Counted from the stretch's first letter, positions 44,135 through 51,519 are shown. The stretch: DNA of 51,580 nucleotides from Pseudomonadota bacterium (GCA_048498415.1 JBEHYA010000003.1:1-51580), one strand, 5' to 3'. Numbers and translations are program-made. Notes: generated by a model not told the origin, from the letters alone.

Positions 44135-44164
44135 CTTCTCACGCCATTCCGCCCATCTTTTGCA

Positions 44165-46071
<1,907 letters not shown>

Positions 46072-46247: not shown

Positions 46248-46940
46248 GTGATGAGTAAAACCTATACGATCGAGGGCATGCACTGCGCATCGTGCGTGCG
46301 CAAGGTAACAGCGGCGCTTGCGGCGGAGGGCTATAAAGCGCGGGTTACGCTTGATCCCCCGCAGGCCCAGCTGAACGGGGAAGCGCCGGAAGTAGAAATA
46401 CTGAATGCGGCGCTGGCAAAAGCGGGCGCGTATAAACTGGTGGATGCGCCCGCTGCCGCGGCCGCCGCCGCGCCGGGCGGATGGCTTAAGACGTATTTTC
46501 CCCTGCTGTTGATTGTCGGCCTGATCAGCGTTGCATCGTTTAGCGGCGCGGCACATGTGCATGACTGGATGCTGAATTTCATGGCCGGGTTCTTTATTAC
46601 CTTCGGCGCGTTTAAGCTGCTTGATATACGCGGTTTCCGCGATGCCTATGCCAGCTATGACCTGCTGGCGGCGCGGTGGAAAGAATATGGGCTGTTATAC
46701 CCGTTTATAGAACTGGCGCTGGGGTTTGCATTTCTGTTTCGCTTTGAAATCACCCTTACCCTGTGGCTGTCGCTTGCGGTCATGGGCGTAAGCAGCCTGG
46801 GCGTTTTAAAAGCCTTGCGCGAAAAGCGGGAACTGCGCTGCGCGTGCCTTGGCACCACGCTGAAGCTGCCCATGTCAACCATCACGCTGGTGGAAGACCT
46901 TGGCATGGTTGCGATGTCGGCGCTGATGCTTATGGCGTAA
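46248..46940 (+). CDS. Heavy-metal-associated (HMA) domain fused to a MauE/DoxX-like membrane domain
   Basis: IEGMHCASC (GMxCxxC); FMAGFF...FKLLD...YDLLA, YPFIEL, CACLG, EDL. Confidence 0.85.
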   Translation: MMSKTYTIEGMHCASCVRKVTAALAAEGYKARVTLDPPQAQLNGEAPEVEILNAALAKAGAYKLVDAPAAAAAAAPGGWLKTYFPLLLIVGLISVASFSGAAHVHDWMLNFMAGFFITFGAFKLLDIRGFRDAYASYDLLAARWKEYGLLYPFIELALGFAFLFRFEITLTLWLSLAVMGVSSLGVLKALREKRELRCACLGTTLKLPMSTITLVEDLGMVAMSALMLMA

Positions 46941-47550
46941 AGGCGGCTTTGATTTTATCAAAAGCCGACATCGTCGCCGTTGGGCTGTCCGGACCATTGC
47001 AAATGGCCATCACATATTCATCCAGCGACTGGCCAATCATTTGCGCATTTCTGGCAACTTCAACGCGCTTATGCGGATCATTATGGGTGAGCGACGCGTA
47101 GGCTTGCTGCATATCGTACATATGGGGCGTTTGAATGGCGGTGGTTACGCCCAGACTGGCGATGGCAAAAGCGACCGTGGCGATTTTGATGGGTTTGGAT
47201 ACAAATCTTCCGCGCACGGCATACCATCCGCCCAATACCAGTGCATCAATGCCCGCGCCAAGGCCAAGCATAAGTAACGGGCTGTAAGGATCCGGGCTTA
47301 AAAATGCGGCAACCTCGGGGATGATGGTACTGAGGGCCGGCGCGGCAAGACAGCCGGCATGGCCAGCCAGAAGGCCGCCCGCACCCGCGCCCACACAATA
47401 ACCGCAGGTACCCAGCATGGCACGCAGCCAGCTGGTATGGTTGCTTTTTTCGATTACGGCGTGGTTACGTTTGGCCATGCGGCGCAGCGCATCGAAAGCT
47501 GCATCCGGTGCCGCTTCGGGCGATTGATGTACTTCATATGTAATCGACAT
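46930..47550 (-). CDS. Hypothetical membrane protein with CxxC and HxxC motifs
   Basis: About 3 hydrophobic segments; TCGYC...GHAGC; starts 2 nt after the upstream stop. Confidence 0.65.
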   Translation of the reverse strand: MSITYEVHQSPEAAPDAAFDALRRMAKRNHAVIEKSNHTSWLRAMLGTCGYCVGAGAGGLLAGHAGCLAAPALSTIIPEVAAFLSPDPYSPLLMLGLGAGIDALVLGGWYAVRGRFVSKPIKIATVAFAIASLGVTTAIQTPHMYDMQQAYASLTHNDPHKRVEVARNAQMIGQSLDEYVMAICNGPDSPTATMSAFDKIKAAFTP

Positions 47551-47552
47551 GT

Positions 47553-48161
47553 TTAACCCTGGGCTGGAAAATAAGGGGGCTGCTGCATCAGGCGAACAAG
47601 CCGGTCGCCCGCCTGACTGCGCGTCTTTTTGAAAAAAGCCGTCAGCGTGCCGGTGTCTTTTATATCCAGCGTGAAAGGCGAGATGGCGCCAGCAGAGACA
47701 AAAGACAGGGCTTTTATTTCCCTGTCTTCGCTCACGGGTTTGATGGCAAGAGCGCGACCATCGTTATGAATGACGGCAAAGGGGTTGGCATCCAGCGCAA
47801 CGGAGGTGATGGCACCATCTGCGCCCACGCGTACATCGCAGCATTCCAGGGCGGCTTCACGGATCTGCCCGAAAAGCTTTTTGGTCGGCGGAAACGCGCG
47901 TTCGGATGCAAAGGGGTGCAGGAAAAAGGCGGCGTCATCGGTTGTGGCATATGGCGCAAAAAGCCGCCATGCCGGAATGGCGAGGGGCGCCTGCACGTTC
48001 AACAGGCGGCACATGGCGAAAAAGTTTGCCTGAAACTGCTCGTGTTCGAGCGCGGGCGTCAGGTTTGGGGCCAAGACGGCCTTTTCCTGCAGCCGTTTAA
48101 AGACGGCGTCGGTAATACGCCCGATAAAAGCGATGTGTATATTATTGAAATCCAGATTCAT
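47553..48161 (-). CDS. Hypothetical protein
   Basis: Strong GGGAGG RBS; operon spacing with neighbours; no family recognised. Confidence 0.65.
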   Translation of the reverse strand: MNLDFNNIHIAFIGRITDAVFKRLQEKAVLAPNLTPALEHEQFQANFFAMCRLLNVQAPLAIPAWRLFAPYATTDDAAFFLHPFASERAFPPTKKLFGQIREAALECCDVRVGADGAITSVALDANPFAVIHNDGRALAIKPVSEDREIKALSFVSAGAISPFTLDIKDTGTLTAFFKKTRSQAGDRLVRLMQQPPYFPAQG

Positions 48162-48185
48162 ATTTTCCTCCCTGTTTTAAAATAT

Positions 48186-50330
48186 TCAACCGTTGTTAAT
48201 GCCCTTCATGGCGGTCAGCATGGCCGTGTTGTTCGATTTGTTTCTGTCATCGCATTGGGTGCATGGCCTTTTTAACAGGGCGCATTTAATTTTGCAGAGC
48301 GCGTCGGCGGCGGCTTTGTAACTGTTTTCGGCCACCCGATCGACCTGTGTGCCAAGCCGTTCGACATTGATGCGAATGCCCGCCAGGCCTGTGGCAGCGT
48401 TCTGCCGGGCCGCGTCGATCATGCCGGCGGCGGCCTGCTGGGCGTGGCGCACATAGCTGCCGGCCTGATCGAGAACATGCCGGGTGGTTTGCTGCGCCGC
48501 TTCACGGTAATGCGCCAGAATGGGTTTGATCTGCGCCATTAAAGGCGGCGGTGCGGCGAGGGCAGGCGCCGCGGCAGAAGTGGGCGGCGTAGCGATATGC
48601 GCGGCCACGTTATTTTGTGCAACTGCCGTTGCTTGCGTCACGGTTTTCATCACAGCTTCCGGCTTCTGCGCGGCTGGCGGCGCTGCGAAAGAAGAAGCCA
48701 TTATCATGGCGGGAGAGATAACCGGTAACGTTACGCGGGGCTCGCTCGCGCGGGTCTGCGGTGCAGCCATGGCGGGGGGCATACCGATTACCATATAAGT
48801 AGCGGCAGTTTTATTTTCCCCTTTAGACGGCAAGACGGCTGCCGGTAGATGTGCGGCTGGCGCGATCATTTCTTTTGTGTCTGAATGATGGATGGACGGG
48901 GCAACAGGTTTTGAATGACCCACTGCTGTCACGGGCAGTGCAGCCGGAACGGACGGCGCCGAGGAAGGCAAAGCGTGCGTGGCCGTTCGGCCTGCCCCCG
49001 GCACGCCGGCCGATAAAGACGGCGCTGCGGCTGCCGCAGCCGGCAGCGTCACTATTGCGGGTGGGACATTATTAGCTGGTGCAGCTTTCGTAGAAGGCCG
49101 GATAACTGTTTGAACCGGAGTAGCCGGAATGATGGATGCCGCGGTTGCCGCCGCCGTGCTGGCCGGAATGCCCTGGCTTTTTTGCGCAGGCTGAGCGCGC
49201 ACGATGGAAAATGGCGCGCGCGTTTCCGGCGTGGACCCCCGCAGGGCCGCGGGATTGCCGGGAATGACGCGAAGATGATAGCGGGTGGAAGCAAGGGGCT
49301 GCTGCGAGACATGTCTGCGCGTTTCAGAAAATTTCCCTGCAAGCCGTTCGGCCCACGCGCTTTTGCCGATCATTGAAACGCGTGACGGGGCATCCGCTTT
49401 TATGCCTGTTTTTGCCAGCATGGCGGGGGCCAGCTTTTGCGGCGGCGCGGCGTGCGCGGTACGCAGCGGTATCGGGCGGGAGGCCGCCTCTGAATTAGAT
49501 GGGCGGCGTTCAGATGGGTGTGTCTGGCGCGGTAAAACGGCCGGGTGGGTATTGCCGGGCGGGAATAATTTTGTATCAAGATAAGGCAGCGCCCGCGCCA
49601 GGACTGGCAGGGTGCGCGGCAATTCCCGCAACTGGCGGATCATCTGGTGCAGGGCGTGTTTATGCGCCGGCGGCAGGCCCGGCACCTTGGCAATGGCCGT
49701 GAGGCCCGCCTGCATAGCATTAAGCGTTTTGGCCAGCGCCTGCGGTTTTACGGCGCCGGGATTCTTTTTTGCTTCTTCCAGCTGCTTTGCCAAAGCGGTT
49801 TTATGGCCGTGCATGGCGGCGATCAGGCCGCCCAGTTTCGCGCGCTGATCGCCCAGCACCTGGAGCACGCCGGTGCGGTCGATATTCTCCAGCTGGCCCA
49901 TGATGACGTGGAGACGGCGTAGAATCAGATCGAACTGGGTGGGCCGGTCAATATGTTCCAGCGCGCACAGGCTAATCGCCAGCGTGCCGGCGGCGGTTTC
50001 GCCACTATGGAAATAATGGGTCTGCGCCGGCTGGCCGAAATCGGGTAGAAGCGCCTGGTGAGCGGTTTCCGTTACGGCAAGGACGACCAGCGGCGCCTGC
50101 CGGGCCGCGGCAAAGCGTTCGACCTGCTGCGCGATCGCGGCCGCCTGCCGGCCATCCGGATCGGCAAAGTAGGCCGAAAGTTCGCGCCGGACGCGGGCGG
50201 CGACTTCTGCGGCGGCGCCCATTATTTCAAGGTGCGGCACATCGTAAAGGTATGGTACGGCCGGCGGTTCGCTGGTGGCCATAGGTTCATTGCCGCCGCG
50301 CAGCGCGGCAGCCGTGGCAGGAGCGTTCAT
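48186..50330 (-). CDS. Large hypothetical protein: helical N-terminus, Ala/Pro-rich linker, C-terminal Cys cluster
   Basis: 714-aa ORF; long low-complexity A/P tract; C-terminal LCKIKCALLKRPCTQCDD. Confidence 0.65.
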   Translation of the reverse strand: MNAPATAAALRGGNEPMATSEPPAVPYLYDVPHLEIMGAAAEVAARVRRELSAYFADPDGRQAAAIAQQVERFAAARQAPLVVLAVTETAHQALLPDFGQPAQTHYFHSGETAAGTLAISLCALEHIDRPTQFDLILRRLHVIMGQLENIDRTGVLQVLGDQRAKLGGLIAAMHGHKTALAKQLEEAKKNPGAVKPQALAKTLNAMQAGLTAIAKVPGLPPAHKHALHQMIRQLRELPRTLPVLARALPYLDTKLFPPGNTHPAVLPRQTHPSERRPSNSEAASRPIPLRTAHAAPPQKLAPAMLAKTGIKADAPSRVSMIGKSAWAERLAGKFSETRRHVSQQPLASTRYHLRVIPGNPAALRGSTPETRAPFSIVRAQPAQKSQGIPASTAAATAASIIPATPVQTVIRPSTKAAPANNVPPAIVTLPAAAAAAPSLSAGVPGAGRTATHALPSSAPSVPAALPVTAVGHSKPVAPSIHHSDTKEMIAPAAHLPAAVLPSKGENKTAATYMVIGMPPAMAAPQTRASEPRVTLPVISPAMIMASSFAAPPAAQKPEAVMKTVTQATAVAQNNVAAHIATPPTSAAAPALAAPPPLMAQIKPILAHYREAAQQTTRHVLDQAGSYVRHAQQAAAGMIDAARQNAATGLAGIRINVERLGTQVDRVAENSYKAAADALCKIKCALLKRPCTQCDDRNKSNNTAMLTAMKGINNG

Positions 50331-50409
50331 GGAAATTTAAATCGTTAAAAGCGGTCAGACAGATAGCGTCGCTTGCCCATGGCAAGACGAAGCCCGCGGA
50401 TAAACGGAT

Positions 50410-50814
50410 TTAAATTTGCGGCGGCGCGCGCGGCTGGGCGGGGGTAAAAAAATGCTGGAAGGAAGCGCGTGCCGGTATGGCCGGCGCGGCCCGTTCCAGA
50501 AAAATAAAGAGGGCGAGAAGAACAGGCAGGAAAGTGAAGCCCGCTACTTGCGGCGCGCCGGCATAGGGGCAGGCATCGGTCTTGATTTTGCCGGGCGCAG
50601 GATGATCGCCGGGCTGGCCGGTTTGATCCACCACCGTATGCCCGAGGCCGGCGGCGGTGCAGATGGTGATATTGAATAGACCGCGCGCGCTCGCCCGTAC
50701 ATCCGGCATGAAGCCAAGCGGCATGATGGCGGTAAACAGATAGGCAAACAGCACCACCCACGCGAAGGATGCGCGTATTGTCTGCAGGCGAAGGCGGCTC
50801 AGAAAAGAAGTCAT
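50410..50814 (-). CDS. DUF2946-family leader protein (CruR/CutF-like) with C-terminal RAPP motif
   Basis: ATG 50814; signal/TM ending MPLGFMP, ICTAAG, DACPYA, C-terminal QPRAPPQI*. Confidence 0.8.
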   Translation of the reverse strand: MTSFLSRLRLQTIRASFAWVVLFAYLFTAIMPLGFMPDVRASARGLFNITICTAAGLGHTVVDQTGQPGDHPAPGKIKTDACPYAGAPQVAGFTFLPVLLALFIFLERAAPAIPARASFQHFFTPAQPRAPPQI

Positions 50815-50872: not shown

Positions 50873-51499
50873 TTAGTCGAAATCGGCCGGGCGGTTGGGT
50901 TCGCGGTGGTGGCGGAACATGGCCTTGACCTGAAATTCCACGATGCGGTCGATGGAGAGCGGGGGAAGGTCGTCTTCGGCAAAATAGGCGGCGCCCAGCG
51001 TTTCGTTGCTGGGGGTGATGGTGCCGCCGGTGACCGCGCACATGAAAAACATTTTGTAGATGTGGAAAGGGAAGTGGGGTTCGTGCGGGTGTTTTTCGCG
51101 GTCGAACACGGCGGCGAGTTTGGTGATACGGGCGTGAAGGCCGCATTCCTCCCACACCTCGCGGATGATGCACTCGGATGGGGATTGGCTGACATCCGCC
51201 CAGCCGCCGGGGAGCGACCATTTTTCGTCGGAACGTTCCTGGACGAGCAGGATTTTATCGCCCTCAAAAATGGCGGCGCGCACATCGACCTTCGGCGTGG
51301 CGTAGCCGGCCTCATTCTTGAAAAGCTTTAGAATGTGTTCGGGCGGCGCATCCGGGGTGGCCAGCATTTCCGCGGCGATTTCGCGCAGGCGTTCATAGCG
51401 CGCAACCTGAAAATGGTTCTCGGCATAGGTAAGGCTGGTTTGCGACAGCGCCTGAATCTCACGCGCCCAGTTCAGCCATTTGGTGTTTGATGTAGCCAT
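50873..51499 (-). CDS. NUDIX hydrolase with Nudix_N domain (ADP-ribose pyrophosphatase-like)
   Basis: KWLNWAREIQALSQ, GYATPKVDVR, Nudix box GGWADVSQSPSECIIREVWEECG; ATG 51499. Confidence 0.9.
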   Translation of the reverse strand: MATSNTKWLNWAREIQALSQTSLTYAENHFQVARYERLREIAAEMLATPDAPPEHILKLFKNEAGYATPKVDVRAAIFEGDKILLVQERSDEKWSLPGGWADVSQSPSECIIREVWEECGLHARITKLAAVFDREKHPHEPHFPFHIYKMFFMCAVTGGTITPSNETLGAAYFAEDDLPPLSIDRIVEFQVKAMFRHHREPNRPADFD

Positions 51500-51519
51500 G
51501 ACTACTAATATAAGCACGA

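Follow-up and report, generated by a model that had tools for sequence, protein, structure and literature searches.

A predicted DUF2946 arrest-peptide leader of the one-cysteine type ahead of three genes of undescribed families: a probable metal-handling module in a pseudomonadotal genome

On contig C3 (JBEHYA010000003.1:1-51580) of Pseudomonadota bacterium GCA_048498415.1, a small gene of the Pfam family DUF2946 is the first gene ahead of three co-oriented genes. The contig, 51,580 nucleotides (nt) long, was analysed whole and is called the window below; it belongs to a 1.98-Mb, 140-contig metagenome-assembled genome (G000). The other G-numbers stand for the related genomes compared, of which G027 belongs to a different family from the window's genome. 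The leader represents a known type of switch, and its cargo families are not described in the libraries searched; probably, then, a known kind of stalling switch controls an undescribed metal-handling module. In its full form the explanation combines a copper signal, start-site unmasking and a thiophilic-metal cargo, with a one-cysteine variant of the DUF2946 arrest-peptide leader gating the three undescribed genes, and this combination is held with a little more confidence than doubt. Stalling and gating by the leader, the copper signal, the unmasking read-out and the relay or holding of metal by cysteines are all steps that we infer.

The features that carry the argument are the following (coordinates are those of the window; aa, amino acids; ORF, open reading frame).

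50410-50814, minus strand: leader gene, 134 aa, Pfam DUF2946 (ATG at 50814, stop codon at 50410-50412)
50419-50430, minus strand: RAPP codons (R129-A-P-P132) of the leader, the predicted ribosome arrest site by analogy with CruR
50331-50409, minus strand: spacer of 79 nt between the leader and the 714-aa gene (T26 C22 G17 A14)
48186-50330, minus strand: large cargo gene, 714 aa (ORF call)
48252-48296, minus strand: C-terminal cysteine cluster of the 714-aa protein, C679-x3-C683-x6-C690-x2-C693 (from the sequence)
47553-48161, minus strand: 202-aa cargo gene (ORF call)
46930-47550, minus strand: 206-aa cargo gene (ORF call)

The layout is operon-like. The leader and the three cargo ORFs are separated by gaps of 79, 24 and 2 nt, the 206-aa gene starting 2 nt after the stop of the 202-aa gene; the spacer behind the leader measures 79 nt versus 162 nt in Bordetella pertussis.

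The leader matches DUF2946 (PF11162) over its full length, at E 4e-11 and 44.1 bits against a gathering cut-off of 23.7, with residues 18-132 covering profile positions 1-117 of 117. The family had been proposed from the sequence alone, and the profile match across the entire model bears this out; a scan of the whole genome returned the leader, at 43.9 bits, as the sole match there. Roy et al. characterize DUF2946 proteins by an export signal, a CXXC motif, a RAPP sequence three residues from the end and the first position in an operon (PMC9426467). By hydropathy, an export-type hydrophobic stretch occupies residues 12-39 of the window leader, after R7, R9 and R14 and before a possible A-S-A site at 41-43, in agreement with the export signal read earlier; a second hydrophobic stretch lies at residues 85-115. 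The sequence ITIC is found at 49-52 (Cys52). The cysteine motif is C82-P-Y-A85, with the second cysteine of the family's CXXC missing. The tail reads R-A-P-P-Q-I, so that RAPP is present at 129-132 as the original prediction said, but is not strictly terminal, Q-I preceding the stop; a PPP stall motif of the CutF type is not present. From A85 to R129 the spacing is 43 residues, and the distance between cysteine motif and RAPP given for the family is 45 +/- 2 residues (PMC9426467).

Small ORFs with a RAPP or RGPP tail number 13 in the genome, the window leader being the only credible one. In an alignment of 13 leaders from the same order, R129, P131, P132 and C82 are invariant and C52 of ITIC is nearly so, while the second cysteine of CXXC is absent in eight of them, including the leaders of TonB-receptor operons in G002 and G007; it is absent in G027 too. 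Because this cysteine is missing, the leader is not classed as a canonical CruR; on its sequence it is a one-cysteine variant of the studied DUF2946 prototypes.

The products of the three genes behind the leader had been described as unassignable to any family, and this stands: for the 714-, 202- and 206-aa proteins, no family in Pfam, NCBIfam, PADLOC or PHROGs scored above its threshold, and sequence searches of the PDB were empty at E <= 0.01. With PADLOC and PHROGs both negative, a defence or phage origin is without support. Chance reading frames were considered and rejected, since all three ORFs have relatives with conserved motifs and the two ends of the 714-aa ORF show gene-like G+C content by codon position. 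No paper describing the cargo was found in the literature search. Roy et al., in the text accessible of that report, tabulate cargo by Pfam family (PMC9426467), and unannotated cargo would therefore not show there.

The 714-aa protein consists of a conserved N-terminal domain (about residues 30-260), a low-complexity middle (about 261-600) rich in Ala, Pro, Ser and Thr (23% Ala, 15% Pro), and a helical C-terminal part. The G+C content at third codon positions is 0.59 in the middle and 0.71-0.72 at both ends, as compared with 0.70-0.73 in housekeeping genes. Neither a signal peptide nor a membrane segment is evident. The C-terminal CxxxC-x6-CxxC of the original prediction was located at residues 679, 683, 690 and 693, and one or two cysteine clusters of variable spacing lie within the last 170 residues in all seven members of the family with an intact C-terminus. 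A search with the single sequence found only the protein itself in 41 genomes; relatives were found by profile search. The first 260 residues are related to P0046 (43%, E 2e-46) and P0047 (41%, E 3e-39), and the N-terminal domain is also related to proteins 3' of the leaders in G005, G006 and G004. Its profile matches eight of the 71 genomes of the order, and six of these (G000, G001, G004, G005, G006 and G007) are among the eight genomes of the window's family. An AlphaFold2 model of the domain is of moderate quality (predicted local distance difference test, pLDDT, 69.5; predicted template modelling score, pTM, 0.59) and consists of an alpha/beta part and a four-helix bundle. Foldseek found no match to it in the PDB at E <= 0.001. 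Copper storage proteins, which appeared with VIA-align Z scores of 9.4 and 8.6, were rejected as a match to the domain: these scores are within noise, the top Z of 12.6 belonging to generic helical bundles.

The 202-aa protein is soluble and carries the motif E-C-C-D-V (C107, C108), invariant in its family; the gene is preceded by a strong Shine-Dalgarno sequence, GGGAGG. Its relatives are three among 5.8 billion proteins, in addition to the G005 copy. An AlphaFold2 model of it was unusable (pLDDT 44.2), and the ESM Atlas held no usable match for either the 202- or the 206-aa protein.

Three hydrophobic stretches in the 206-aa protein are interpreted as membrane helices. C49-x2-C52 (CGYC) and H64-x2-C67 (HAGC) lie immediately before the first of them and at its beginning, so that both motifs of the membrane protein noted earlier are confirmed, at 49-52 and 64-67; W109, G114-R115 and the C-terminal Cys184 are further conserved features. 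A homology search with the single sequence returned only itself. With a profile, 40 proteins at E <= 0.001, the window's own included, were found among 1.84 billion cluster representatives (39 relatives), and in a 401-genome sample of the class the profile matched the window's genome and, weakly, two proteins in one genus. H64 is invariant in the family; C52, C67 and W109 are nearly so, C49 and the C-terminal cysteine are frequent, and in many members the third helix is followed by a His-rich stretch. Pfam gave no match over cut-off for any of the 39 relatives, two of which have sub-threshold MerC scores. The 206-aa protein itself was considered as MerC (PF03203) or MerT and rejected, with no MerC match at E <= 0.1 and hhalign probabilities of 0.3% against Tn21 MerC and 0.8% against MerT. 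The longest contig given is 10,102 bases for both P0046, a relative of the large protein, and P0050, which is related to the 206-aa protein, and the two may share one assembly contig. Because the 202- and 206-aa families are extremely rare, the system is a lineage-specific invention rather than a widespread pathway.

The linkage of leader and cargo recurs in relatives. G005 carries the entire module: its leader precedes genes of 709, 212 and 197 aa whose order and spacing are those of the window. Identity to the 202-aa protein is 47% for the 212-aa product (E 1e-65), and identity to the 206-aa protein is 52% for the 197-aa product (E 5e-70). A scan of genome contigs for related loci with alignment A7 returned one locus, this G005 contig, and two metagenome scans with alignments A8 and A7 returned no relative. 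In G006 and G004 the leader is followed by a homologue of the large protein and, further downstream, by two more proteins, one of 171 aa, which contains a Cys-Cys pair, and one of 295 aa, which, as read from the sequence, has one hydrophobic stretch and a CxxC. Homology of these 171- and 295-aa proteins to the window's proteins was not shown, the hhalign probability for the 171-aa protein of G006 being at most 1.1%. In G006 (L023 9914-12154), a 746-aa secreted coiled-coil protein, rich in Ala, Lys and Glu, with several cysteine pairs and no Pfam match, is encoded 3' of the module. Leader and large protein occur together in four of the six genomes of the window's family that carry the protein, across two genera. 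Synteny, which the original prediction had proposed as a check, is in this sense conserved, in G005, G004 and G006, and not universal.

The link to copper comes from the DUF2946 family of the leader, from the conserved cysteine motifs in all three cargo proteins and from the operon of G027. There, a DUF2946 leader (CPFA, RGPP) heads genes of 146, 822, 210 and 307 aa. The 822-aa protein is of low complexity and has CxxC at its end, and the sequence KCCW occurs in the 210-aa protein. Similarity of the 307-aa protein to the 206-aa family is weak but specific (per-genome E 0.0018; E 2e-5 against the G005 copy, in a small set), and it keeps all Cys and His positions of the 206-aa protein, C-x2-C...H-x2-C...C. 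The operon continues on the same strand into genes for PCu(A)C (3.4e-35) and SCO1 (1.6e-43), facing a multicopper oxidase gene. The argument from G027 rests on the first and last genes, on similar sizes and on cysteine motifs, because homology of the middle genes was not shown. The multicopper oxidase of G027 (L039 2171-3754) is represented by two ORFs of 188 and 336 aa, a few bases apart, which a frameshift, a sequencing error or a split gene may explain. The window's genome has one gene for heme-copper oxidase subunit I and three PCu(A)C genes, and hence needs copper. Of what had been proposed for the locus, an undescribed cargo is upheld by the library searches and a copper or metal module gains its link from the G027 context. 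The CXXC hallmark of CruR is not found in the leader, CPYA standing in its place.

Two DUF2946 systems have been studied by experiment, and both are copper-responsive (PMC9426467; 10.1101/2025.02.05.636593). CruR (Bp2923) of B. pertussis, the prototype of the family, leads the operon cruR-crtA(bfrG)-bp2921 (PMC9426467; for the receptor, PMC12914433). The RAPP stall of CruR keeps Rho off the transcript, and copper relieves the stall via CXXC (PMC9426467); arrest and a toeprint were later obtained in vitro, the two Pro codons occupying the P and A sites (PMC12992588). The window leader resembles CruR in its Pfam family, in being a small exported first-gene product, in the position of RAPP 2-3 residues before the stop and in the motif spacing (43 versus 45), and differs in having CPYA instead of CXXC and the shorter spacer; moreover, the cargo of CruR is a TonB-dependent copper transporter and a PepSY protein, whereas that of the window is three proteins of no family. 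In the model for CutF of Rhodobacter capsulatus (cutFOG), copper would lengthen the PPP stall that occurs during export, and the longer stall would melt a stem-loop over the ribosome-binding site of cutO, disulfide formation being the proposed release force (10.1101/2025.02.05.636593). Likeness to CutF lies in the exported leader and in a helix that joins the region of the leader stop to the area before the next start, predicted in the window. The two differ in the leader motifs (CXXXC and a PPP stall dependent on elongation factor P in CutF, CPYA and RAPP-Q in the window), in the multicopper oxidase that is the cargo of CutF, and in the helix, which in the window is AU-rich, weak and without support from an energy control.

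For the cargo, the comparison is one of design only. In the Mer relay of Tn21/R100 (MerP, MerT/MerC and the N-terminal cysteine pair of MerA), a membrane cysteine pair passes metal to cytoplasmic cysteine-pair acceptors; the module of the window likewise has a small inner-membrane protein with a cysteine pair near the first helix together with cytoplasmic cysteine-pair proteins, but no homology to MerC or MerT is detectable.

The predicted folds of the spacer and its borders contain the following elements.

50407-50417, minus strand: 5' arm AAAUUUAAAUC of a predicted 11-bp long-range helix, over the last leader codons and the stop (fold prediction)
50333-50343, minus strand: 3' arm GAUUUAAAUUU of that helix, covering positions -3 to -13 relative to the AUG of the 714-aa gene, the place expected for a ribosome-binding site (fold prediction)
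about 50369-50390, minus strand: local GC-rich hairpin within the spacer, 9 pairs and a 3-nt loop, with no U-tract directly after it (predicted fold)

The arms 50417-50407 and 50343-50333 are paired in both the minimum free energy and the centroid folds. The octamer ATTTAAAT has only two copies in the 51,580-base window, one in each arm of the helix, at the leader stop and just before the 714-aa start; by simple arithmetic, the chance that two random sites fall <=80 nt apart is about 0.003. The local hairpin agrees within 2 nt with the one placed earlier at 50367-50389. An Rfam search of the 79-nt spacer gave no family. No sigma-70-like promoter was found in the spacer, and its sole terminator-like match is weak, with 5 pairs and a poor T-run, so that between the leader and the 714-aa gene there is no convincing promoter or terminator, either of which the original prediction had named as speaking against joint control. 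Comparable pairings were found behind other leaders: in G002 a hairpin from the leader stop sequesters the AAGGA of the next gene (L025 6250-6345; z -4.43, none of 200 shuffles as good; 35 of 500 control windows), and in G005 a GGGG ahead of the following AUG pairs with the RAPP codons (equalled by 42 of 500 control windows).

The leader would be inserted co-translationally via its N-terminal hydrophobic segment, and the ribosome would pause with Pro131 in the P site and Pro132 in the A site. How long it pauses would be set by the fate of the exported loop with Cys52 and Cys82, through copper binding or disulfide formation. By the usual ribosome footprint, an arrest with Pro131 (50424-50422) in the P site would cover the transcript roughly to 50410, and with it, as we infer, most of the 5' arm of the helix. 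The 3' arm, which would otherwise mask positions -3 to -13 of the 714-aa start, would then be released and the start site opened, in the manner proposed for CutF. Both smaller genes, of 202 and 206 aa, would be on the same transcript, the 202-aa gene being translated via its own strong ribosome-binding site. Copper may switch the operon on, which is the polarity of CutF, or off, which is that of CruR. As to the role of the cargo, copper(I) or another thiophilic metal would be handled by a relay of cysteine sites, whose parts would be the membrane protein with C-x2-C...H-x2-C, the cytoplasmic Cys-Cys protein and the large cytoplasmic protein with its four-cysteine cluster on a flexible linker of about 340 residues. 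A narrower version, which we regard as unlikely and offer as a speculation, makes the cargo an undescribed copper(I) cysteine relay from inner membrane to cytoplasm that replaces the YcnI/TonB-receptor route of sister species in small-genome alphaproteobacteria, gated by the one-cysteine arrest peptide and the masking helix.

Several results weigh against this explanation, beginning with the sensor: the CXXC that is the copper-binding hallmark of CruR is not intact in the window leader, and mutation of the ITIC-equivalent cysteine was without effect in CruR (PMC9426467). At -9.2 kcal/mol the predicted helix is weak; in the energy control 399 of 500 random windows pair equally well with the GC-rich end of the leader, and shuffled sequences fold as well as the whole spacer does (z -0.5, 57 of 200). 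The 714-aa gene has no Shine-Dalgarno sequence. Pairing between leader end and start site was not significant in G006, G027 and G007, nor in G004, for which the downstream start used is probably too far upstream. The large protein occurs in G001 and G007 without a DUF2946 leader upstream, and its function therefore does not need the leader. As to the cargo, the 146-, 822- and 210-aa proteins of G027 reach hhalign probabilities of at most 1.1% against the window's families, the 206-aa family has no detectable homology to MerC or MerT, and neither fold nor family evidence places any cargo protein in metal binding; the cysteine clusters could instead bind zinc or have a redox function.

In another reading, the same leader-gated operon senses the thiol/disulfide state of the envelope or another thiophilic metal (Zn, Ag, Hg, Cd), the cargo being a thiol-disulfide relay of a CcdA/DsbD- or MauE-like kind. 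The loss of the canonical CXXC would suit it, as would the presence of Cys52 and Cys82 in the predicted exported loop, where they could form a disulfide, the proposed release force of the CutF model (10.1101/2025.02.05.636593). Other leaders of the order head AhpC/TSA-Redoxin (G026) or ZnuA (the second leader of G007) genes, and the neighbouring gene in the window is of MauE type. But no cargo protein has a Pfam match to the DsbD, CcdA, thioredoxin or MauE families, the G027 operon runs on into the copper chaperones PCu(A)C and SCO1, and the two DUF2946 members studied respond to copper (PMC9426467; 10.1101/2025.02.05.636593); we consider this reading quite improbable. Still more doubtful, in our estimate, is mere adjacency, by which the leader is a relic of a YcnI/TonB-receptor operon and the large protein is controlled on its own and unrelated to metal, for example a scaffold with a zinc-knuckle tail. 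In sequence the leader indeed shares more with the TonB-receptor-type leaders of G002 (42%) and G007 (38%) than with those that head the module in G005, G006 and G004 (30-32%), and the leaderless copies in G001 and G007 and the negative energy control of the masking helix point the same way. Against this, the leader is intact and has retained RAPP, it is paired with the large protein in four of six carrier genomes of the family and in two genera, the spacer is short and without a promoter-like site, and the two ATTTAAAT sites stand exactly at the leader stop and the cargo start.

The read-out may also follow CruR, with the RAPP-stalled ribosome blocking Rho and the release by copper leading to Rho termination in the spacer, which would turn the operon off. 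This mechanism was shown for the prototype (PMC9426467), and the spacer holds more C than G (22 versus 17); because the 714-aa gene lacks a Shine-Dalgarno sequence, translation of the leader may matter mainly for transcription. On the other hand, 79 nt compared with 162 nt in Bordetella (PMC9426467) is short for Rho loading, and the paired ATTTAAAT arms suggest that control acts on translation initiation. Termination by Rho is, on balance, unlikely, if the least so of the alternatives weighed here; it would replace only the read-out step and can be compatible with the rest of the explanation by a leader-gated metal module.

The DUF2946 leaders of the order head cargo of several other types. 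In G002 (L025) and G007 (L022), one-cysteine leaders (CPFA and CPFG, respectively) head operons of DUF1775 (YcnI) and a TonB receptor. These are the nearest leaders by sequence and share the one-cysteine CPF(A/G) variant; what differs is their cargo, which is of a known copper-uptake type. The TonB receptor of G002 has no homologue at E <= 1e-5 in G000, G005, G006 or G027, and profile searches of G002 found no large protein and no 206-aa protein. Receptor and module cargos are not strictly exclusive, because G007 carries a receptor-type operon as well as a large protein without a leader. In G026 (L030 6639-8539), G008 (L031) and G034 (L032), leaders of the CPxC type head a protein of 305-320 aa that starts with a signal peptide and CACGCG; the G026 copy has no Pfam match and is followed by an AhpC/TSA-Redoxin protein, a further cargo type of the order. 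G007 (L027 6128-8804) also has a second, divergent DUF2946-like leader (RGPP, CVFS) ahead of genes for a 448-aa protein that matches no family and a zinc-binding protein of the ZnuA type.

The module is flanked in the window by two genes with Pfam matches.

50873-51517, minus strand: Nudix hydrolase gene (Pfam Nudix_N 2.7e-19, NUDIX 1.7e-16), 58 nt upstream of the leader
46248-46940, plus strand: HMA-MauE fusion gene, 230 aa, convergent neighbour (Pfam)

Coordinates and sizes of the 230-aa gene, as of the 134-, 714-, 202- and 206-aa genes, agree with those given earlier, and so does the 11-nt tail-to-tail overlap of the 206-aa and HMA-MauE genes (46930-46940). The 230-aa protein matches HMA (1.3e-6, residues 5-59, with GMHCASC) and MauE (3.5e-16, residues 108-229) and has a CAC motif at 198-200. 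A homologue was found in three of the 21 genomes searched, namely the window's own, G007 (63%) and G011 (54%), with other neighbours in the latter two; none was found in G005, where the module is complete and its convergent neighbour is a methyltransferase gene. HMA-MauE, rare and unlinked elsewhere, is therefore not supported as part of the system, and the idea of a conserved partner, which the convergent arrangement had suggested, is not sustained. The remainder of the window consists of ordinary chromosomal genes, among them those for tRNA synthetases, uvrB, uvrC, thyA, folA and thiC. A thiamine pyrophosphate (TPP) riboswitch (Rfam RF00059, 71.9 bits, E 4.6e-13) at 44162-44267 on the plus strand covers the first ATG of the thiC ORF (44236); the true start of thiC is probably a downstream Met, because the riboswitch spans that ATG.

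To our knowledge, DUF2946 leaders are the only arrest peptides known to report a metal, and the cargo of the two that have been studied is a TonB receptor in one case and a multicopper oxidase in the other. In the window the same switch precedes three gene families not described in the libraries, all of them with conserved cysteine motifs. The locus thus gives a concrete and testable way into an unknown step in how bacteria handle copper, and its natural one-cysteine leader could help to separate the two proposed modes of sensing, metal binding and disulfide formation.

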